64,000 nt of DNA from Vicinamibacterales bacterium (GCA_965237405.1 OZ250139.1:3781661-3845660), one strand, 5' to 3'; positions 16,601 through 25,355 are shown, numbered from the stretch's first letter. The notes: generated from the sequence alone by a model not told the origin. Numbers and translations: made by a program.

Positions 16601-16939
16601 TTAGACGTTAAACGAGAGACCACAGCCACACTCGCTGGTGGCGTTTGGATTGCGAAATACGAGGGACTGCCCCAGCATGTTGGGATCGCAATCGAGAACC
16701 GTCCCATCCAGGTATTTGTAACTCTTCTTATCGACGAAGATTCGTGTTCCCTGAGCGCTCACGAATACCTCGTCGTCCGGCTTAGGCTCAGCTTCCCAAC
16801 GGAAAACATAACTCATCCCGTTGCAGCCGCCCGCCTTAACACCTACTCGCAATCCACCGTCTGAAACACCCTCGGTTACCATTGCCTCACGGATTCGCTT
16901 GGCTGCAACTTCAGTCACTTCGATCATTGGTCTCACCAA
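16601..16939 (-). CDS. iscA: Iron-sulfur cluster insertion protein, IscA/HesB family
   Basis: GGCNGMSY and C-terminal ECGCGLSFNV motifs. 112 aa. Confidence 0.9.
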   Translation of the reverse strand: MVRPMIEVTEVAAKRIREAMVTEGVSDGGLRVGVKAGGCNGMSYVFRWEAEPKPDDEVFVSAQGTRIFVDKKSYKYLDGTVLDCDPNMLGQSLVFRNPNATSECGCGLSFNV

Positions 16940-17920
16940 GTGTAGTCGACGGGTGACAGCCTCGCAATCGCGTCACAAGGGTCACGACCTTGTCACTCAC
17001 GTAGTCGACCTCTGCCTCTGTGTTGCTGCGGCCCAGTCCAAAGCGCACAGACGCCCTGGCTAATTCGTTCGAGAGCCCAAGGGCCAGTAAGACATGTGAC
17101 GGCTTAGGATTAATCGACGTGCACGCGGATCCCGACGACACGGCTACCTCATCGAAACCGACAAGGAGTGTCTCACCTTCCACGCCATCGATGCTGATAT
17201 TGAGGTTATTGGGCAGACGGTTAGTGACCGAGCCGTTGCAACGAAGGCCGCCCAGTCGACTGGAGAACCGCTACCACAACCGGTCACGCAATGCAGCGAG
17301 CATCGTCCGCCATCTCCGCGCGACAGATCTCCGCGGCCTGACCAAACCCAACGATGGCGGCAACATCGACGGTTCCAGAGCGAAGATCCCTTTCATGTCC
17401 ACCGCCGTCGATCTACGGCTCGATCGCGATTTTAGGCCGGCGCCGACGCACGGCCAGTGCCCCGATTCCCTTAGGTCCGTACAGCTTGTGCGCGCTGAGA
17501 GACACGAGGTTCACGGCGCTACGATCCGCAGATAACGGAACCTTGCCGAGTGCTTGGGTCGCATCAGTGTGGAATCGAACCCCGCGTTGATGAGCAACAT
17601 CACAGAGCTTTGTGATGGGCTGCAGTACCTCGATCTCGTTGTTGGCGGTCATTACCGACAAGAGCGCGGTGCAGTCGGTAAACGCGCTACCGACCTCCTC
17701 TACATCGACGCAAGCCATAGGCGTCGGGTCATACGTACGTGACTCGCATGCCAGCCGCCTCAACCGCGTCTCGGGCCACCCAACCAAACGCATGGTTCCG
17801 GCTTGCGGCGTTGCCGAACATCTTGGTAAAGAACGGCGTCATCGCGTCGACAACCCGGGGATCCACCGGGATCGTCGCGTGGTGGTCCATATAGATCGGG
17901 AGCTTCACCGCCATAACCAT
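16911..17920 (-). pseudogene. iscS: Decayed cysteine desulfurase gene (iscS/nifS-like)
   Basis: Three ORF fragments carry IscS segments ([19 protein letters not shown]; TANNEI...FHTDATQALGKVPL...SAHKLYGPKGIGAL; VAVSSGSACTS). There are in-frame TAGs at 17413..17415 and 17271..17273 and at least two frameshifts (about 17735 and about 17300). An internal deletion of about 65 codons near 17750 shows up against the E. coli IscS layout. Confidence 0.85.
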
Positions 17921-17970: not shown

Positions 17971-19598
17971 CTAGCAGCCTGTCGGACTTGGGCGTGGCAA
18001 ACGCGCGCGGAAGCGACTTGGCACCTGTGTGAACGACGCCCTGTGTCTCTGTGCCGGGAGGGCCGCTTCGACCGAAACGGGGACTGTATTCCTGGCCATC
18101 GGTCGCTGACGGCGCCTGGAGGCCTTTCTGACGCCTCTGGTGGGTCGCGAACACGCCAAGTTCCGCTCCTTATAGCCCCGTCATGCCAGCCTGAGGTTGT
18201 GCAAGCGTCGGCAGTTATACGCCAGCGTTACCAAGGCCCATTCGCCCTCCACCTTCTCGAGACCCCGCAGCAGAAACTGCCGGAAGCCCATCGCCTGCTT
18301 CACGATCCCGAACACCGGCTCCACCGTCTGCTTGCGCAAACGGTAATGCGCCCGGTGCTCCGGCAGTGCCATCTTCTGCTGCATCGACTTGATCCAGTCC
18401 GCCTGCGGCTCCTTCGCCAGCGGGTGCGGCGGCTCCGGTCGGAAGTCGTGCTGGCGCCGTTGGCCTTCCGCCCCCGTCGCCACCAACACCTCCACACCGC
18501 GACCTGCCAGTTGCGACACCTCGCTGCCCGTCGCGTAGCCGCTGTCCGCCAGTACCCGATCCGCCGCGCCCAACGCCGCCGGGATCGCATCCACATCCGC
18601 CACCAACTCGTTGCGGTCGCTCGCGCACACGCTCACCCTAGCCCCCAACACCAACTGACTGCCGTCGGCATCCACCGCCGCCTGCGCGTTGTACGCCTGG
18701 CGGTACTCATGGCGCCGGCTCTTGCGCATCAGCGCACTGTCCGCGTCCGTCAGGTTGATCTGCTCCTCCGCCTCCGGCGCTTCCGTCGGCGGTTTGATGT
18801 GCCGACCCTTGCGCGATCCCGTACGCCGCTCCCGCGCCGCCACCTTGCGCTCGTACTCCGCCCGCTCCGAGTCCGCACGCGCCTGCGCACGCCGTTCCAA
18901 CTCCGCGCACGCACGGTCCAGCTTCACCCGCAGCTTGTCCCGCCGCGACAACTCCTCCGGCAGACCCTGCGGGTCCGGCGCGGCGTCCGTGTCGGCGTGC
19001 TCCGCCTGATCCAACAACCCCTCGATCTCGCCTCGCAACTGCTCGCGCAACGCCCCCGCCCGGTCGTAGCGGAGGCTGTTGCGCTTATTCGCGTTCGCGT
19101 CCACCTTCGTCCCGTCCACGCTCACCGTCCCAACACGCAGCAGCTGCAGCTCCTTCGCCAGCAGCAGTACCTGCAGGAACGCCTCCGCTACCGCATCGAA
19201 GTTGCTGCGCCGGAACGTGCAGATCGTGTCGTGGTCCGGGTGACAGTTCGCCGCCACGTACCGAACGCCAATGTCCCGATACGTCGCCCGCTCGATCCGA
19301 CGCGAGCCGAAGATCCCGTTCGCGTAGCAGTACACCAGCAACGCCAGCATCATCCGCGGGTGATACTGCGCCGATCCGGTGCCCCGTTCGTTTACCTGGA
19401 ACCGCTCCAGCGGCACCCGTTCCACCGCCTCAACCACGAAGTGCGCCAGATCGTCCTCCGGCAGCCAATCGCGCAGGTCCGGCGGCAGCAAATACAGCTG
19501 CGACTGGTGCCGCTGTACGAACTTCGGCATCTACTTCGACCTCCTCGACTCGACAAGCCCTATTATAAAACCCGGGCCTAAGTCCGACAGGCTGCTAG
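17971..19598 (-). mobile_element. IS element, IS1182/IS5-like, 1628 bp, with 23-bp terminal inverted repeats (22/23 match)
   Basis: IRL CTAGCAGCCTGTCGGACTTGGGC (17971..17993) versus the reverse complement of IRR, CTAGCAGCCTGTCGGACTTAGGC (19576..19598). The terminal CTAG could instead be a 4-bp target duplication. Confidence 0.85.
18181..19530 (-). CDS. IS1182-family DDE transposase
   Basis: 449 aa. The N-terminus QSQLYLLPPDLRDWLPEDDLAHFVVEAV...YHPRMMLALLVYCYANGIFGSRRIE...PDHDTICTFR is the typical IS1182/IS5 N-terminal domain, with a DDE region downstream. Confidence 0.85.
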   Translation of the reverse strand: MPKFVQRHQSQLYLLPPDLRDWLPEDDLAHFVVEAVERVPLERFQVNERGTGSAQYHPRMMLALLVYCYANGIFGSRRIERATYRDIGVRYVAANCHPDHDTICTFRRSNFDAVAEAFLQVLLLAKELQLLRVGTVSVDGTKVDANANKRNSLRYDRAGALREQLRGEIEGLLDQAEHADTDAAPDPQGLPEELSRRDKLRVKLDRACAELERRAQARADSERAEYERKVAARERRTGSRKGRHIKPPTEAPEAEEQINLTDADSALMRKSRRHEYRQAYNAQAAVDADGSQLVLGARVSVCASDRNELVADVDAIPAALGAADRVLADSGYATGSEVSQLAGRGVEVLVATGAEGQRRQHDFRPEPPHPLAKEPQADWIKSMQQKMALPEHRAHYRLRKQTVEPVFGIVKQAMGFRQFLLRGLEKVEGEWALVTLAYNCRRLHNLRLA

Positions 19599-19600
19599 TG

Positions 19601-20089
19601 TCAAAAATCGGCGACTGTAACGCCGACTGAAGCACACTCCGGCACGTGATGGAAACGAATCGAAATCACGGAAGACCGCGCCGATCCGTCTTCGGCAAGC
19701 TCTTTCAAGGTGAAGGACTCGAGCGAACTTACGATCCGGTTCTTTAGCTGCCACAGTGGACCACGAATGTTGCATTTGGAGTACTGCTCGCAACTCTCGT
19801 CTAAATCGGAGCAAGCCGTAATCATGACCGGCCCGTCGATCGCCACGATCACATCGGCTACCGAGATCTGGATGGCGGGTCTAGAAAGCTGATAGCCGCC
19901 ACGACTTCCCTGATGCGAAACGAGTAGACCTTTTTTTGACAGCCGCTGTAGCACTTTTGCCATCAACTCGATCGGAATGTCGAATCGGCCCGCGATCTCA
20001 CGTGCGCTCGACGAAATGCCTTGAGGCTTCGAGGCTAGATCCTTAAGGGCGATGAGGGCGTAGTCGGCCTTCTTGGACAATCGCAGCAT
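19601..20089 (-). CDS. iscR: Rrf2-family transcriptional regulator (IscR-like)
   Basis: MLRLSKKADYALIALKDLA wHTH N-terminus and a C-x6-C-x5-C cluster-ligand-like spacing (CSDLDESCEQYSKC). Confidence 0.8.
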   Translation of the reverse strand: MLRLSKKADYALIALKDLASKPQGISSSAREIAGRFDIPIELMAKVLQRLSKKGLLVSHQGSRGGYQLSRPAIQISVADVIVAIDGPVMITACSDLDESCEQYSKCNIRGPLWQLKNRIVSSLESFTLKELAEDGSARSSVISIRFHHVPECASVGVTVADF

Positions 20090-20169
20090 GTCGAGACTCG
20101 GAACACTCCAGATTCTACCAGGATATCGTCCCTCTTTGCTACCCGTCGAGAAATGCCGATACGAATATG

Positions 20170-21333
20170 TCAGTACTTCGGTAGCGTCGAGTCAACCCTG
20201 TCAATCCAAGCCAGAATACCGCCACGAAGGTTCTTCGCCTTCGAGAAACCAGCTTCGCGTAAGAGCTTCACCGCCTTCGCGCTCCGGACTCCAGACTTGC
20301 AGTGCACGATCATGTCGTCGTGCCCCTCTAACTCGGTCAGCCGATGCGGAAGACCACCGAGTGGGATAAGCGTAGACCCAGGGATACGGCAGATCTCGAA
20401 CTCTTGTGGCTCTCGTACGTCGAGCAGGAACACCCCATCGTTGGCATCGAGGCGCGCCTTGAGATCCTCGACCGTCACTTCGTTCCCCTCAGATATCTCA
20501 CTGGCGACCGGCGGAGTGATACCGCAAAACTGCTCGTAGTCGATTAGCTCAGTGATGGTTGGGTTCTCACCACACACCGGGCATTCAGGATCCTTCTTGA
20601 GCTTAAGATCACGAAAACGCATCCGGAGAGCGTCGTAGATCATGAAACGGTTGATCAGCGCCTCGCCGATCCCGATGATCAACTTGACCGCTTCGGTCGC
20701 CTGAATGGTACCGATCACACCTGGCAAAATACCGAGGACCCCACCCTCGGCGCAGCTCGGTACCAGCCCGGGCGGAGGAGGTTCGGGATAGAGACACCGG
20801 TAACACGGGCCGTCCTTTGTCGCGAACACCGACACCTGCCCTTCGAACCGAAAGATGCTGCCATAGACGTTGGGCTTCCCCAGGATGACGCACGCGTCGT
20901 TCACAAGATACCGTGTCGGAAAGTTATCGGTGCCGTCGACGATGATGTCGTACCCGGAAAGCAAATCGATCGCGTTGGCCGACGACAGTGCCACGTCGTG
21001 CGTCACAACCGTCACTTCGGGATTAATCTCCGTCAACCGGTCGCGCGCCGACTCCAACTTGGGCCGTCCAACGTCGGGTGTTCCGTGAATGATCTGTCGC
21101 TGCAAGTTGCTGTAGTCCACGACATCAAAGTCGACGATGCCGATCCGCCCAACGCCTGCAGCCCCGAGATACAGCGCGACCGGAGACCCGAGGCCACCCG
21201 CTCCTATGCAGAGGACGCTGGCTGCCTTGAGCTTGAGCTGCCCATCCATGCCGACTTCCGGCATGATGAGATGGCGGCTGTAGCGCGCGACCTCCTGGTT
21301 GCTCAGCGCGGACGTAGCTTCATTCATCCACAC
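20170..21333 (-). CDS. moeZ: Adenylyltransferase/sulfurtransferase MoeZ (ThiF/MoeB E1-like domain plus C-terminal rhodanese)
   Basis: RYSRHLIMPEVG, GAGGLGSP, CxxC pairs (CYRC, CPVC), and a C-terminal rhodanese domain with active-site CKSGVRS. The start is either GTG 21333 or ATG 21327, both overlapping the carrier-gene stop. Confidence 0.9.
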   Translation of the reverse strand: MWMNEATSALSNQEVARYSRHLIMPEVGMDGQLKLKAASVLCIGAGGLGSPVALYLGAAGVGRIGIVDFDVVDYSNLQRQIIHGTPDVGRPKLESARDRLTEINPEVTVVTHDVALSSANAIDLLSGYDIIVDGTDNFPTRYLVNDACVILGKPNVYGSIFRFEGQVSVFATKDGPCYRCLYPEPPPPGLVPSCAEGGVLGILPGVIGTIQATEAVKLIIGIGEALINRFMIYDALRMRFRDLKLKKDPECPVCGENPTITELIDYEQFCGITPPVASEISEGNEVTVEDLKARLDANDGVFLLDVREPQEFEICRIPGSTLIPLGGLPHRLTELEGHDDMIVHCKSGVRSAKAVKLLREAGFSKAKNLRGGILAWIDRVDSTLPKY

Positions 21334-21604
21334 CGCCCGCCACGGATGGCACGATGCTGATGGTGTCTCCGTCGTTTACGGACGTCGCTTCCCTATCTAA
21401 ATAACGAATATCATCATCGTTGACATACACGTTGACGAAGCGCCGTAGTCGGCCGTCCTCGTTATATAGATGACTTCGCAGTTCTGAGTACTTGGCAGTC
21501 AGGTTCTCCAAAAGCTCTCCAACCGTCTTTCCTTCGACCTGTACGACATCCTGCTTACCCGCATACACACGAAGCGGTGTTGGTATCAGTACATTATTGG
21601 CCAT
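21320..21604 (-). CDS. cysO: ThiS/MoaD-family sulfur carrier protein, CysO-like, ending GG-VDE
   Basis: IPTPLRVYAGKQ...RFVNVYVNDDDIRYL...DGDTISIVPSVAGGVDE closely parallels M. tuberculosis CysO (which ends ...AVAGG), but has 3 extra residues after the Gly-Gly. Confidence 0.85.
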   Translation of the reverse strand: MANNVLIPTPLRVYAGKQDVVQVEGKTVGELLENLTAKYSELRSHLYNEDGRLRRFVNVYVNDDDIRYLDREATSVNDGDTISIVPSVAGGVDE

Positions 21605-21615
21605 ATCAATTTGTC

Positions 21616-22113
21616 CTATTCGTTTCGTCGTTCGATACGTGCTTCATCGAACGCTGAGCGGTCTTCTCGTAGTCGCCACGAGGTCATCACACCAGGCTCG
21701 CCCTTCTCGACGGCGATGATCACATACGTAAACACCGGCCAAGCGTGATCCAGATCATACTGGGACGGGCGAGCTGGGTGGTCAGGGTGCGAATGATAGA
21801 AGCCGATCAGCTCGTGGCCAAACTTCGTCGCACGCCGCTCCGCCGTTCGATAGTCGTCTGGACTGACCAAGAAGCGACGTCGCGGCCCTTCCTCGGTTGT
21901 ATTAGGGAGCGAAAAGCACTCCCCCACGACGTTATCGGTCCCAATTAAGGCGCCGCAGCACTCGTTTGGGTACGTTTCGCGACCGTGATTCTGAATATGC
22001 ACGGCAACGTTGTCACGAATGATGAGTGCCTTCTCTTGATCGTTCAACATCGACCTGTTCTTGCTGGTTCCAACCTTGTGAACTAATCGTCTCAGAACCA
22101 CTGGGGTAAGCAT
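21616..22113 (-). CDS. mec: JAMM/MPN+ metalloprotease (Mec-like)
   Basis: JAMM motif: E in YPNECCG plus HSHPDHPARPSQYD (HxHx7Sx2D). GGAGAGGA SD before the ATG at 22113. Confidence 0.85.
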   Translation of the reverse strand: MLTPVVLRRLVHKVGTSKNRSMLNDQEKALIIRDNVAVHIQNHGRETYPNECCGALIGTDNVVGECFSLPNTTEEGPRRRFLVSPDDYRTAERRATKFGHELIGFYHSHPDHPARPSQYDLDHAWPVFTYVIIAVEKGEPGVMTSWRLREDRSAFDEARIERRNE

Positions 22114-22242
22114 TCCTCTCCGCCGTCAGAGAAAATCCTGTCAACGAAGTCCTCACACAACCTGCACGCTCGCCATCAACATCAATAGATCCACTGGCCA
22201 GAATCCACTCCACCCTTGTCACCTGCCTCCAGACCTACCTAC

Positions 22243-23580
22243 CTATTTGGAGTCAGTGTCAAAGCCCTTCTCTCGCCATGCGAGAGTCCCTCCGGTAATA
22301 CTCCGTACGTTGCGATAGCCAAGAGATTTAAGGAACAAAACACCTGACAACGAAGCGTTTCCACGTTGGCACACGCTGAGAATCGGAGCGTCGAGATCAC
22401 TGGAAAGAGCTGAGAGATCCTCGCCAAGCTCCTGGAGCGGCATGCTGAGGGCACCGGGAATGTGTGCCTCCTGATATTGGTCGTTCGGACGCACATCTAT
22501 CACAGATGACTTGCCGTCCTTCCACTGCACATGAGCAGCTTCAACATCAATGGTTAGATCGGCGTTACCTCGCACGTTCTCCACCATCTTATCGAGCAGC
22601 GTGTTGCTCGGTGCCCCCCCCTTAAACTCTTCGGCTGCGAGACCCGGCAAATGTTTCACTACCGACGATGCATACTTAAATGCGCTATCGCAAAAGATAA
22701 CGACCACGACATTGCCGGATTCATCGGGCACAAGTTTGAAGGCGCCAGAAAGCGCCATGGCCGAACTCGGGCCGGCGATAATACTCTCCTCCCGATTCAA
22801 GCGTAGGCAGAGGTCAAACGCTTCTTGATTTGTCACCTCGACCAAACCGTCGTACTCGTCAGGAAAGAACAACTTCGTTTGCTGCAACTGCCGGATACTT
22901 CGCACACCCGGGATATCATGTCCCTCCTGCGGGTGCACGCCGAAGATCTTGACGGAATCATTCTGCTCCTTTAGGAACCGGCCAGTGCCGGTAATCGTTC
23001 CGCACGTACCGAGCCCCGATACAAAGTGCGTCACATTCCCTTGAGTCTGACGCCAGATCTCCGGCCCGGTCGTTTTGTAGTGCGCATCAGGGTTCGCTTC
23101 GTTGGTGTACTGGTTCAACATGTGGAACCCGGGACGATCGGCGATTTCGCTGGCCTTTGCAATAGCTCCTTCAGGTGCCCCTGGTGCCGGACAGAGACTG
23201 TCCTCAAGCTCTATTACATCGGCACCAAAAAAACGGAGCATGGTGCGCTTCTCAAGTGGGATCTCGCTCGAGAGCGGCGTTGTCAGGGAATATCCCCTAA
23301 TATTCGCGATCATGGCGAGCGCCATGCCCGTATTTCCCGAGGTTGGCTCAACTAGCTTCTGGTTGCCGTGGATCGTTTGGCGTGCTTCGCCATCGGCTAT
23401 TAGGTTGGCTGCAACACGATCCTTGACCGCACCGAACGGGTTGTACCACTCGAGCTTGCCGTACACTTGCGTGTGCCTGAACGGCAACACCCGGTTTAGG
23501 CGGACCAAGGGCGTGGGATTGTCGGTACCGGAGAGAAGGCCGAGAATAGAATCATAGACGCGCAGGGCATGATCATTCAT
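22243..23580 (-). CDS. cysM: PLP-dependent cysteine synthase (CysM-like) fused to a C-terminal rhodanese domain
   Basis: Beta-family PLP enzyme motifs: NPFGAVKDR (PLP Lys), EPTSGNTGMALA. The last roughly 110 aa form a rhodanese domain (VIDVRPNDQYQEAHIPGA ... CQRGNAS). Confidence 0.8.
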   Translation of the reverse strand: MNDHALRVYDSILGLLSGTDNPTPLVRLNRVLPFRHTQVYGKLEWYNPFGAVKDRVAANLIADGEARQTIHGNQKLVEPTSGNTGMALAMIANIRGYSLTTPLSSEIPLEKRTMLRFFGADVIELEDSLCPAPGAPEGAIAKASEIADRPGFHMLNQYTNEANPDAHYKTTGPEIWRQTQGNVTHFVSGLGTCGTITGTGRFLKEQNDSVKIFGVHPQEGHDIPGVRSIRQLQQTKLFFPDEYDGLVEVTNQEAFDLCLRLNREESIIAGPSSAMALSGAFKLVPDESGNVVVVIFCDSAFKYASSVVKHLPGLAAEEFKGGAPSNTLLDKMVENVRGNADLTIDVEAAHVQWKDGKSSVIDVRPNDQYQEAHIPGALSMPLQELGEDLSALSSDLDAPILSVCQRGNASLSGVLFLKSLGYRNVRSITGGTLAWREKGFDTDSK

Positions 23581-23900
23581 CGCCTAGCTGATCCTCACAT
23601 AAACCATAGTATTTTCGTTCTGCCGTGACGTTGGTTGGCATACACATCTTAACTCGATCGCCTGACGCCGCTCTGATTATGGCGTAAGCGATTCCCGTGT
23701 TTCCGGAAGTCGCGTCAAACAGGATCGTGCCCGAGTGCAACGGACCGCTAGCGACACCTGTGACAATCATTCGGGCCGCCCCACAGGATTTTGCCACGAG
23801 GCCGTAGCATACAGCTCAACCTAGGAAAGCCGCCGGTCGAAGCGGAGTAATCGATCCAGCGAAGTGTTTCCGGTGAGGTCGACGGCCATGGAGGCCCCCT
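23573..23900 (-). pseudogene. Remnant of a second cysteine-synthase paralog
   Basis: Minus-strand frames read GNTSLDRLLRFDRRLS*VELYATASWQNPVGRPE* and then, after a frame shift, ARMIVTG...TILFDATSGNTGIAYAII...MPTNVTAERK. The remnant is truncated where cysM starts. Confidence 0.6.
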
Positions 23901-24041
23901 TCTGCTGAAACTCCTGAGATATCGATACCAATCGATCGTAACATTCATTAAGAGAGACGCCTGTGGAACGCGAGCCGTCCCGGTTGTGCGGGCACCTCGG
24001 TTAGCTTATCCTCAGTCGGAAACTTCGGTTGTCCCATCGAT

Positions 24042-25355
24042 ATGGAACCATTTTCGACCATCGCTACCCTGGCCATGTTCCTAGTGGGGCTCGGGCTCGG
24101 GCTGGCTATGGGATGGATGCTTGGACGAGCTCTGAGTACGCGGGAAACTAGCGAACGTAACACACAATTGGTCGCAGAGACTGCGTCGGCGAAGACCGCG
24201 CTCGAAGCCGAGCGGCAAGCGATGGCCGATCGCGAGGCCCTACTTACCAAAACCGACGATCATCTTCGACAGACGTTTACCGCACTATCGGCCGAGGCGC
24301 TTCGGACCAACAATAAGTCCTTCCTCGAGCTCGCGCGTAACTCGCTCGCCGAGTACCAGCGACAGGCCTCAACCGATCTACAACACCGCCAACAGAAGAT
24401 AGGTGAGCTAGTCAAGCCACTGCACGAGTCGCTCGCTCGGGTCGACGCCAGGCTGCAGGAAGCGGAAAAAGAACGGGTCGGATCGTACTCGCAGCTTTCA
24501 GAACAACTCCGCGCGCTGGCAATCACAACCACGAACCTCGAGCGTGCGTTGCAGACGCCCAACATCCGCGGCGGCTGGGGCGAAGTGCAACTCAGGCGAG
24601 TCGTCGAGATGGCGGGAATGCTGAACCACTGCCACTTCGTCGAGAAGAAGGCCGCCACGTCGGACGACGGACGTTTCATTCCAGATCTGATAATCAAGCT
24701 GCCAGGAGACCGGAACATTGTCGTCGACGCAAAGGTGCCGTACATCGCCTATCGGGAGGCGGTAGAGGCAGCCGACGAATCCACGCGTGCGGTCAAGTTC
24801 AAGGACCACGCGCGTCAGCTCAGGGAGCACATCACTCAGCTCAGCAGCAAGAAGTACTGGGACCAGTTCCAGCCGACTCCCGAGTTCGTGTTTATGTTCC
24901 TACCCGGAGAGGGCTACTTCAGCGCGGCGCTGCAACACGACCCGACGTTGATCGAGTTCGGCGTCGACAAACGGGTCATTCCGGCAAGTCCCTTGACGCT
25001 GATCGCACTGCTGAGAGCAGTCGCATCCGGATGGCAGCAGGAAACGGTGACGCAAAACGCGAAAAGAGTCAGCGAACTGGGTCGTGAGCTCTATGACCGG
25101 GTACGCGTGCTAGGGGTGCACTTCGATGAGCTGGCGCGTGGACTCACCCGGACTATCGCTGCCTATAACAACAGCGTGGGTACACTAGAATCACGGGTAC
25201 TGGTCACCGCACGTAAGTTCAAGGATCTCGGGGTCGCAGCGAACGACCCGATCCCCGAACTCCTTCCGGTCGACCACACTCCCAGGGCGCTCCAGGCCCC
25301 CGAGCACGCAGACCTCATCAGTGATCCGACCGATGGCGAGGTGGTCAAAGACTAG
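24042..25355 (+). CDS. rmuC: DNA recombination protein RmuC
   Basis: N-terminal TM helix, a long coiled coil, and the conserved C-terminal RmuC region (RGGWGEVQLRRVVEMAGM, VVDAKVP, FVFMFLPGE). Confidence 0.85.
   Translation: MEPFSTIATLAMFLVGLGLGLAMGWMLGRALSTRETSERNTQLVAETASAKTALEAERQAMADREALLTKTDDHLRQTFTALSAEALRTNNKSFLELARNSLAEYQRQASTDLQHRQQKIGELVKPLHESLARVDARLQEAEKERVGSYSQLSEQLRALAITTTNLERALQTPNIRGGWGEVQLRRVVEMAGMLNHCHFVEKKAATSDDGRFIPDLIIKLPGDRNIVVDAKVPYIAYREAVEAADESTRAVKFKDHARQLREHITQLSSKKYWDQFQPTPEFVFMFLPGEGYFSAALQHDPTLIEFGVDKRVIPASPLTLIALLRAVASGWQQETVTQNAKRVSELGRELYDRVRVLGVHFDELARGLTRTIAAYNNSVGTLESRVLVTARKFKDLGVAANDPIPELLPVDHTPRALQAPEHADLISDPTDGEVVKD

Follow-up and report, generated by a model that had tools for sequence, protein, structure and literature searches.

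A candidate operon for thiocarboxylate-dependent cysteine synthesis with a tailed sulfur carrier and a rhodanese-fused synthase in Vicinamibacterales

Cysteine biosynthesis that depends on the sulfur carrier CysO was reportedly described in Mycobacterium tuberculosis by Burns et al. in 2005. The steps of this thiocarboxylate-dependent pathway, which comprises CysO, CysM, Mec+ and MoeZR, are summarised in PMC3227635. A gene set combining a ThiS/MoaD carrier, an E1-rhodanese, a JAB hydrolase and a cysteine synthase was described in 2006 as operon type 4c; the sections of that paper concerned with it name Solibacter (Acidobacteria), Salinibacter, Chloroflexus and others as holders, and note that the actinobacterial type 4d also contains ClpS (Iyer, Burroughs and Aravind 2006, PMC1779556). 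Carriers with residues after Gly-Gly, such as QbsE (GG-CF) and CxnE (GG plus 10 residues), are matured by the JAMM proteases QbsD and CxnF (PMC5925218). Rhodaneses serve as persulfide relays: E. coli YnjE acts between IscS and MoaD/MoeB, and MOCS3 and Uba4 each have a rhodanese domain that acts likewise (PMC3227635). Here we analyse a locus of this kind in a 64,000-nucleotide stretch of DNA from a Vicinamibacterales bacterium (GCA_965237405.1 OZ250139.1:3781661-3845660; henceforth the window), where a rhodanese-fused cysteine synthase, a Mec-like JAMM protease, a CysO-like sulfur carrier and a MoeZ-type E1-like enzyme are encoded by consecutive genes (Table 1).

We propose that these genes constitute an operon of the M. 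tuberculosis CysO type, for cysteine synthesis that depends on a protein thiocarboxylate, and that the rhodanese on the synthase acts as a sulfane-sulfur relay; we give this reading a probability of about 0.62. An earlier note on the same DNA, made from the sequence alone, had named a CysO/CysM/Mec/MoeZ-type system of four genes; we found all four open reading frames on the minus strand where it placed them, with all catalytic motifs intact, and the assignment is supported by both homology and conserved synteny. Specifically, we scanned one genome per species and obtained 126 relatives of the fused synthase, the best 80 of which were used for all locus counts. Nearly all of these 80 came from metagenome-assembled genomes of Vicinamibacterales (Acidobacteriota), with synthase identities of 72-92%. 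The gene order synthase-JAMM-carrier-E1 was retained in 76 of the 80 loci and a JAMM match was present in 77, one locus being interrupted by a contig end.

The carrier, its tail and the adjacent protease

The carrier has a ThiS/MoaD fold, and its nearest solved structures are two CysO proteins, that of M. tuberculosis (3dwg_C; E 1e-19) and that of Amycolatopsis (4n6e_B; E 7e-19); its own Gly-Gly aligns in both cases with the Gly-Gly at which the CysO protein ends. Here three further residues follow. The C-terminus reads ...PSVAGGVDE*, with Gly90-Gly91 encoded at 21337-21332, the Val-Asp-Glu tail at 21331-21323 and the stop codon at 21322-21320, so that the Gly-Gly would become available for adenylation only once the tail has been cleaved off. 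This masking, to which the earlier note had drawn attention, extends well beyond the window: residues beyond PSVAGG were found in 117 of the best 120 protein matches to the carrier, and each of the 73 unfused carriers (from 72 related loci and the window) has 2-10 variable tail residues following an invariant PSVAGG/PTVAGG. The tail was three residues long in 58 of the 73, and among its sequences were RAS (22 carriers), VRS (6), AGRRA (6) and xDE (8). The occurrence of these tails across independent assemblies excludes a mis-called stop or a sequencing error at the cysO/moeZ overlap. Some of the long tails on unfused carriers (e.g., TGSVATGLSR) look like the fusion linkers described below.

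The start of moeZ overlaps the stop of cysO in every one of the 73 unfused loci, with a 4-nt overlap of the form [A/G]TGA in 62 and the 8-nt ATGAATGA in 8, the window among these. In 71 loci the Gly-Gly codons precede the moeZ start by 4-14 nt (by exactly 8 nt in 50), and in the remaining two by 17 and 29 nt. On its simplest reading, the tail would be a spacer from the G-rich Gly-Gly codons, probably the site at which ribosomes bind for moeZ, to the overlapping moeZ start, and would have no sequence-specific role; a spacer between these codons and the start/stop overlap would explain both the length of the tail and its lack of sequence conservation. We rejected VDE as a sequence-specific pro-peptide, given that tails vary and that the moeZ codons in the overlap determine the xDE form (D-E, in the subclade of the window, is what ATG-AAT-GA encodes when read in the cysO frame). 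We propose that such a tail is tolerated because the protease is present.

Related genomes also contain carriers that are joined to the E1 enzyme altogether. In four of them (L014, L028, L038 and L065) there is no cysO stop and the carrier runs in frame into MoeZ through a Pro/Ala-rich linker of 13 residues, giving proteins of 481-483 amino acids. A search with one of these proteins returned ThiS, ThiF and Rhodanese domains in all 120 best matches (75-100% identity, many of them multi-contig), and carrier-MoeZ fusions thus comprise at least 120 protein clusters (P0437-P0556). PSVAGG was retained in all 120 fusion proteins listed, with a variable linker of 6-20 residues in the 80 fusion proteins whose MoeZ N-terminal motif matched the pattern used. 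ThiS-ThiF-Rhodanese fusions of 476-494 amino acids, with variable Pro/Ala/Glu-rich linkers, are widespread in Acidobacteriota. The likeness of some long tails to these linkers suggests that carrier and MoeZ may have undergone repeated fusion and fission, through loss or gain of the stop codon.

The JAMM gene was kept beside the fusion in all four fused genomes examined. Fused carriers, with PSVAGG still in place ahead of MoeZ, could not be activated unless the chain is cut behind Gly-Gly; such a cut would thus be obligatory, and it is most likely made by the adjacent JAMM enzyme. In the window this protein has the motif E...HSHPDHPARPSQYD, corresponding to E(30)...H86-S-H-x7-S-x2-D, which every one of the 77 loci with a match retains; its closest solved structure is PDB 2kcq (E 1e-29). 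As in the CysO system, an intact E...HxHx7Sx2D hydrolase is thus encoded beside the carrier. A carrier extended beyond Gly-Gly, in one cluster with a JAMM gene, is a combination shared with JAMM-matured precursor carriers of the QbsE/HcyS/CxnE type, and the in-frame carrier-E1 fusions strengthen this likeness. The comparison supports well the inferred dual role of a single Mec-like JAMM enzyme, which would both mature the carrier and release the product, a mechanism of a known type. Krishnamoorthy and Begley reportedly found in 2011 that Wolinella HcyD trims HcyS-Ala and also releases homocysteine. The tailed carrier, put forward earlier as a difference from the M. tuberculosis pathway, is real as a feature but not new as a mechanism, JAMM maturation of tailed carriers being already established for QbsE/QbsD and CxnE/CxnF (PMC5925218). 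Precedents for the fused form are JAMM cleavage of MoaD-MoaE fusions, treated in passages of PMC8832034 and PMC4326299, and the JAB enzyme of type 4c operons, which the relevant section of PMC1779556 predicts to release the C-terminus of fused carriers.

The E1-like enzyme has a GAGGLG nucleotide loop, the zinc motifs CYRC and CPVC, and SCAEGG. All 76 loci scored keep the loop of its C-terminal rhodanese, HCKSGVRS (Cys343 codon 20301-20299), as befits an E1-rhodanese with a catalytic Cys. Its PDB matches are Uba4 and MoeB, and the NCBIfam models for MoeB and MoeZ gave 567 and 546 bits, under their equivalog cut-offs of 633 and 647.

The rhodanese-fused synthase and its relatives

The pyridoxal 5'-phosphate (PLP) domain of the synthase spans approximately residues 20-308 (Pfam PALP, residues 20-298) and is joined to the rhodanese by a conserved linker helix, LLDKMVENVRGN. 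Invariant across the family are K53 (codon 23424-22), TSGNTG (T80-G85), the phosphate loop GTCGT, C130, C193, R227 and, on the rhodanese, the loop VCQRGN. The Lys, the Asn loop, the phosphate loop and the fold are those of a fold-type II beta-replacement enzyme of the CysK/CysM/cystathionine beta-synthase (CBS) kind: the AlphaFold2 model (predicted local distance difference test score, pLDDT, 91; predicted template modelling score 0.74) matched E. coli CysM with a Foldseek template modelling (TM) score of 0.92, and CysM and the CBS catalytic core with TM scores of 0.91-0.94. The best PDB matches were CysM of E. coli and Salmonella (E 1e-61 to 1e-62; 211-214 bits), with M. tuberculosis CysM at about 1e-45 (157 bits to 3dki), and the CysM-type short loop with Arg227 is conserved (GVRS vs GIRR). 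At the same time, the synthase scored 276 bits against a cut-off of 413, and 261 against 394, with the NCBIfam CysM models (NF008735/TIGR01138), and in a neighbour-joining tree (a rough distance tree without support values) it stood on its own branch, joined by an unfused relative of 337 amino acids. Orthology of the enzyme to M. tuberculosis CysM is not supported, though it may be a functional analogue. Calling the PLP domain CysM, as had been done before, is thus correct with regard to the superfamily and the Arg loop, but the domain belongs to a separate subfamily that is not close to M. tuberculosis CysM.

This subfamily has two invariant Cys residues that are absent from classical CysM. 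Cys193 takes the place of Thr/Gly within the PLP phosphate loop (GTCGT), and Cys130 lies within an inserted, invariant loop, LCPAPGAPEG (residues 129-138), for which the AlphaFold pLDDT falls below 50; the model thus suggests that the loop may be flexible. Every rhodanese- or TusA-linked relative shares the loop Cys, which the CysM proteins of E. coli and M. tuberculosis lack.

As an enzyme of fold type II would carry out beta-replacement on a three-carbon aminoacrylate, the expected product is cysteine or some other beta-substituted alanine rather than homocysteine. Homocysteine synthesis uses MetY, an enzyme of another fold (fold type I), and we disfavour homocysteine as a product given that the synthase is not MetY-type. 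The earlier note had held that the product cannot be read from the sequence; a fold-type II CysK/CysM enzyme constrains it more than that, pointing to a cysteine-type product.

The rhodanese of the synthase occupies approximately residues 343-441 (Pfam, residues 354-437) and has the loop SVCQRGNAS, with Cys404 encoded at 22371-22369. C404-Q-R-G-N-A-S is a catalytic six-residue loop of the sulfurtransferase type, and the domain matches rhodaneses of the GlpE/PspE thiosulfate-sulfurtransferase type. Cys404 was kept in 79 of the 80 loci, the loop varying at flanking positions only, so that the alignment upholds a fused rhodanese with its catalytic Cys and rejects an inactive domain. The two rhodaneses of the locus are just 28% identical, and we therefore also rejected the idea that the synthase gained its own through recent copying of that of MoeZ. 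The fusion was present in all 120 closest homologues listed, does not vary within this order and bears the Joint Genome Institute label 'cysteine synthase/rhodanese-related sulfurtransferase'; the arrangement, presented earlier as a second difference from the M. tuberculosis pathway, is a genuine fusion, but one whose architecture is common and already annotated. In full-text searches of the literature we found no study of a CysM-rhodanese fusion, and there was no solved structure with a PALP-rhodanese architecture among the top Foldseek matches.

At 50% identity, at least a dozen separate clusters join PALP to a C-terminal rhodanese. The Streptomyces and Clostridiales fusions (33-35% identity) are found in operons of the order Orn/Arg-decarboxylase - PALP-rhodanese - cysteine-desulfurase-like, and other distant fusions adjoin FUR and CbiA-like genes. 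In seven such neighbourhoods (L081-L084 and L090-L092, from Streptomyces, Clostridiales and other metagenomic contigs) we observed Orn/Arg-decarboxylase-like and Aminotran_5 genes, and/or a CbiA-like ATPase and a FUR regulator, sometimes with ZIP/CobW; judged by gene content, this looks like an uncharacterised thiol or metallophore pathway, possibly metal-regulated. As for the unfused relatives, the nearest has a separate rhodanese gene after it and another has its PLP domain joined to a TusA-like domain; a further relative is located in a sulfite reductase-TusA-3'-phosphoadenosine 5'-phosphosulfate (PAPS) reductase cluster. Given its recurrent fusion with, or proximity to, rhodanese, TusA or cysteine desulfurase, the subfamily would seem to work habitually with a protein persulfide carrier. 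The synthase rhodanese could, then, load or channel sulfur to the carrier and E1 enzyme, or its persulfide could attack the aminoacrylate directly.

Proposed pathway and alternative explanations

In the pathway that we envisage, the carrier would be produced as the precursor PSVAGG-VDE (in sister lineages as a carrier-MoeZ fusion) and cut after Gly-Gly, presumably by the adjacent JAMM protease. By homology, MoeZ would then adenylate the exposed Gly, and the persulfide of the MoeZ rhodanese would turn the adenylate into a thiocarboxylate. The PLP domain would make aminoacrylate from O-phospho- or O-acetylserine, the carrier thiocarboxylate would attack it, and an S-to-N acyl shift would yield carrier-cysteine, again as expected from homologous systems. 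The same JAMM enzyme would finally hydrolyse carrier-cysteine, giving free cysteine and recycled carrier. For the synthase rhodanese, a domain characteristic of this PLP subfamily and predicted to be catalytically competent, the most probable function is to feed persulfide sulfur (from thiosulfate or a cysteine desulfurase) into the carrier/synthase complex or to channel it there.

Several observations weigh against this pathway. The synthase falls under every NCBIfam equivalog cut-off and, in the neighbour-joining tree, outside the M. tuberculosis CysM clade, and because of this its use of the carrier thiocarboxylate is argued from synteny alone. Three loci (L061, L063 and L078) lack a JAMM/carrier/E1 cluster within 6 kb of their fusion gene, which shows 72-78% identity. 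No carrier, E1 or JAMM gene was found near the distant PALP-rhodanese families, which shows, as far as gene neighbourhoods go, that a synthase with a fused rhodanese can obtain its sulfur independently of a carrier. Sulfur drawn from cysteine desulfurase would, furthermore, make net cysteine synthesis futile. Finally, the ribosome-binding role that we assign to the Gly-Gly codons is deduced solely from their spacing. As a separate observation, one of the three loci without the cluster is labelled Gemmatimonadota and another Pseudomonadales, the latter possibly mis-binned.

In one alternative, the synthase would not need the carrier at all. A persulfide on its own rhodanese, derived from thiosulfate or a cysteine desulfurase, would attack the PLP-aminoacrylate, possibly via Cys130/Cys193, and the resulting protein-cysteine disulfide or cysteine persulfide would then be reduced; the neighbouring carrier, E1 and JAMM genes would have some other function or provide sulfur upstream. 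We regard this as unlikely, although it agrees with the recurrence of the PLP subfamily beside rhodanese, TusA or cysteine desulfurase with no carrier or E1, with the three Vicinamibacterales-type fusion genes that lack the cluster nearby, with an invariant Cys130 in a probably flexible loop that E. coli and M. tuberculosis CysM do not have, and with a rhodanese of the GlpE/PspE type. Against it, the JAMM-carrier-E1 synteny in 76 of 80 loci would be difficult to account for among genes with no functional relation. The carrier, moreover, is CysO-like rather than MoaD/ThiS-like, and the other fusion families form separate clades in the neighbour-joining tree, so that their logic need not transfer. 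A proposal that would retain the carrier, and that we advance only tentatively, with the odds well against it, is that the subfamily with the LCP loop consists of distinct cysteine or cysteine-persulfide synthases, which take sulfur from a protein persulfide, not free sulfide, via Cys130 and are carrier-coupled in Vicinamibacterales. In such enzymes the fused or adjacent rhodanese or TusA domain may deliver the sulfur, and the rhodanese may load the carrier adenylate (through an acyl-disulfide tether at the PLP site) or give a second, carrier-independent entry.

Two other explanations start from individual database matches. Enterobacterial CysM, which provides the top PDB and NCBIfam matches of the synthase, makes S-sulfocysteine, and the PLP domain might likewise be a thiosulfate-using CysM, with a rhodanese that handles thiosulfate or S-sulfocysteine and a carrier that serves as an alternative donor at times of stress. 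The conserved CysM-type short loop with Arg227 and a rhodanese resembling thiosulfate sulfurtransferases would suit such an enzyme, but the same Arg is found in M. tuberculosis CysM, where the equivalent residue binds O-phosphoserine. As the score is far under the CysM equivalog cut-off (276 vs 413 bits) and the family branches outside the E. coli CysM clade, we consider this explanation improbable. It is very improbable indeed that carrier, E1 and JAMM enzyme are a ubiquitin-like conjugation system of the SAMP/TtuB kind that reversibly modifies proteins, perhaps the synthase. The carrier does exceed the NCBIfam SAMP1 cut-off (64.3 vs 60 bits), precursor processing is typical of modifiers, the sole NCBIfam match of the JAMM protein is desampylase and the E1 enzyme matches UbaA; the desampylase and UbaA scores, however, are well under their cut-offs, and the best structural relatives of the carrier are CysO proteins. 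The tight linkage to a cysteine-synthase-type enzyme and the invariant Cys of the E1 rhodanese, a hallmark of sulfur transfer, likewise argue for a sulfur carrier, and in known systems the roles of modifier and sulfur carrier coexist. We thus retain thiocarboxylate-dependent cysteine synthesis as the preferred explanation.

Locus layout and comparison with described systems

The cluster and the regulator gene downstream of it make up five minus-strand genes in head-to-tail order between 19.6 and 23.6 kb of the window (Table 1). The four pathway genes had been called translationally coupled; this is overstated, as only cysO and moeZ overlap, the other pairs being separated by 11 nt (mec, which is upstream, and cysO) and by 129-192 nt (synthase gene and mec, depending on the mec start chosen). 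The longest mec reading frame extends to 22113, with homologue alignments beginning at ATG 22050, and for moeZ the start ATG 21327 is likelier than GTG 21333 (reading frame 20170-21333). We found no known RNA or riboswitch in 19000-25000 (Rfam, E up to 1), saw no terminator-like or Rfam elements between the cluster genes, and obtained only background-level signals from promoter and terminator scans of the locus.

Table 1. Coordinates of the features discussed (aa, amino acids). Positions refer to the window, except for the fusion genes, which are given with the related locus that contains them.
Feature	Position	Strand	Description
PALP-rhodanese fused synthase	22243-23580	-	445 aa; Pfam PALP E 6e-64 and Rhodanese E 4e-16
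Mec-like JAMM/MPN+ zinc metalloprotease	21616-22050	-	144 aa from ATG 22050; Pfam Prok-JAB E 1e-23
CysO-like ThiS/MoaD-family sulfur carrier	21320-21604	-	94 aa; Pfam ThiS family E 2e-17
MoeZ-type E1-like adenylyltransferase with C-terminal rhodanese	20170-21327	-	385 aa; ThiF E 1.5e-84 and Rhodanese E 2e-18
cysO-moeZ junction	21320-21337	-	Gly-Gly codons GGC GGT, 4 nt upstream of moeZ ATG
Rrf2-family (IscR/SufR-like) regulator, downstream of moeZ	19601-20089	-	Pfam Rrf2; NCBIfam Rrf2 superfamily
Decayed 5' fragment of classical CysK/CysM-like gene	23573-23950	-	GNTSLDRL...; ...FDATSGNTGIAYA...MPTNVTAERK
DDE transposase	18181-19530	-	449 aa; DDE_Tnp_1/DUF772
IscS/NifS-like cysteine desulfurase pseudogene	16962-17914	-	three reading frames; ~residues 60-124 missing
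IscA/HesB-like gene	16601-16939		next after the desulfurase pseudogene
Carrier-E1 fusion gene, L014	8335-9786		
Carrier-E1 fusion gene, L028	8280-9731		
Carrier-E1 fusion gene, L038	7841-9286		
Carrier-E1 fusion gene, L065	7841-9286		

In most related loci moeZ is followed by an Rrf2 gene and then usually by an intact IscS-like gene; the Rrf2 gene probably heads this adjacent Fe-S/cysteine desulfurase operon rather than belonging to the pathway. In the window a transposase gene is inserted between the Rrf2 gene and the desulfurase gene. As the latter is split and incomplete, this nearby candidate feeder of the rhodaneses is dead in this genome. Directly upstream of the cluster, and overlapping the start of the fusion gene, lies the fragment of a classical CysK/CysM-like gene, with in-frame stops and a frameshift; in the closest relative (L002) the fragment has 51% amino-acid identity and the neighbouring gene 92%, which indicates that it is a putative pseudogene remnant.

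The kind of system and the tail mechanism are already known, and the fusion is common and annotated. New are the tailing or fusion of the carrier as a rule across a whole order and the placement of the synthase in a subfamily tied to persulfide carriers; new, too, and plausible, is the explanation of the tail as a by-product of gene overlap. Vicinamibacterales are abundant in soil and sediment, with few cultured members, and the way in which they build sulfur into cysteine is thus relevant to the cycling of sulfur in soil. The natural series from short tail to long tail to carrier-E1 fusion indicates that JAMM processing of bacterial ubiquitin-like carriers would be obligatory order-wide, and suggests how dependence on a protease may come about as a by-product of gene overlap. 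The synthase rhodanese and the links of its subfamily point to an unstudied mode of sulfur delivery to cysteine synthases, one that may avoid free sulfide.

Compared with the M. tuberculosis CysO system, the locus comprises the same four protein families, with an E1 enzyme that has a C-terminal rhodanese, a JAMM gene that adjoins the carrier gene, a carrier that is about 45% similar to CysO over its full length with Gly-Gly at the position of the CysO C-terminus, and a PLP-dependent synthase of fold type II whose Arg loop is of the CysM type. It differs in that CysO ends at Gly-Gly whereas the carrier here has a three-residue tail, that M. tuberculosis CysM is of another clade and has neither the rhodanese nor the LCPAPG insertion of the synthase, and that moeZ, unlinked in M. 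tuberculosis, here overlaps cysO. The type 4c operon shares both the gene set and the phylum (Acidobacteria); the sections that describe it place the rhodanese on the E1 enzyme only and mention neither a synthase rhodanese nor a tail or overlap. QbsE/QbsD, CxnE/CxnF and HcyS/HcyD resemble the locus in that the carrier is a precursor extended beyond Gly-Gly and that its cluster includes a JAMM gene. Those systems serve the siderophore thioquinolobactin, the antibiotic chuangxinmycin and homocysteine synthesis via MetY, respectively, whereas the partner here is of the CysK/CysM type and the tail, as we read it, is a gene-overlap by-product that grades into full carrier-E1 fusions.

We know of no described system with a second rhodanese on the acceptor synthase. 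Like the rhodaneses of YnjE, MOCS3 and Uba4, that of the synthase is a single domain with a six-residue Cys loop, and its CQRGNAS resembles what we take to be the MOCS3 loop, CRRGNDS. Unlike YnjE, which is free-standing, and the domains of MOCS3 and Uba4, which are carried by the E1 enzyme, the second rhodanese of this locus is located on the acceptor enzyme itself.

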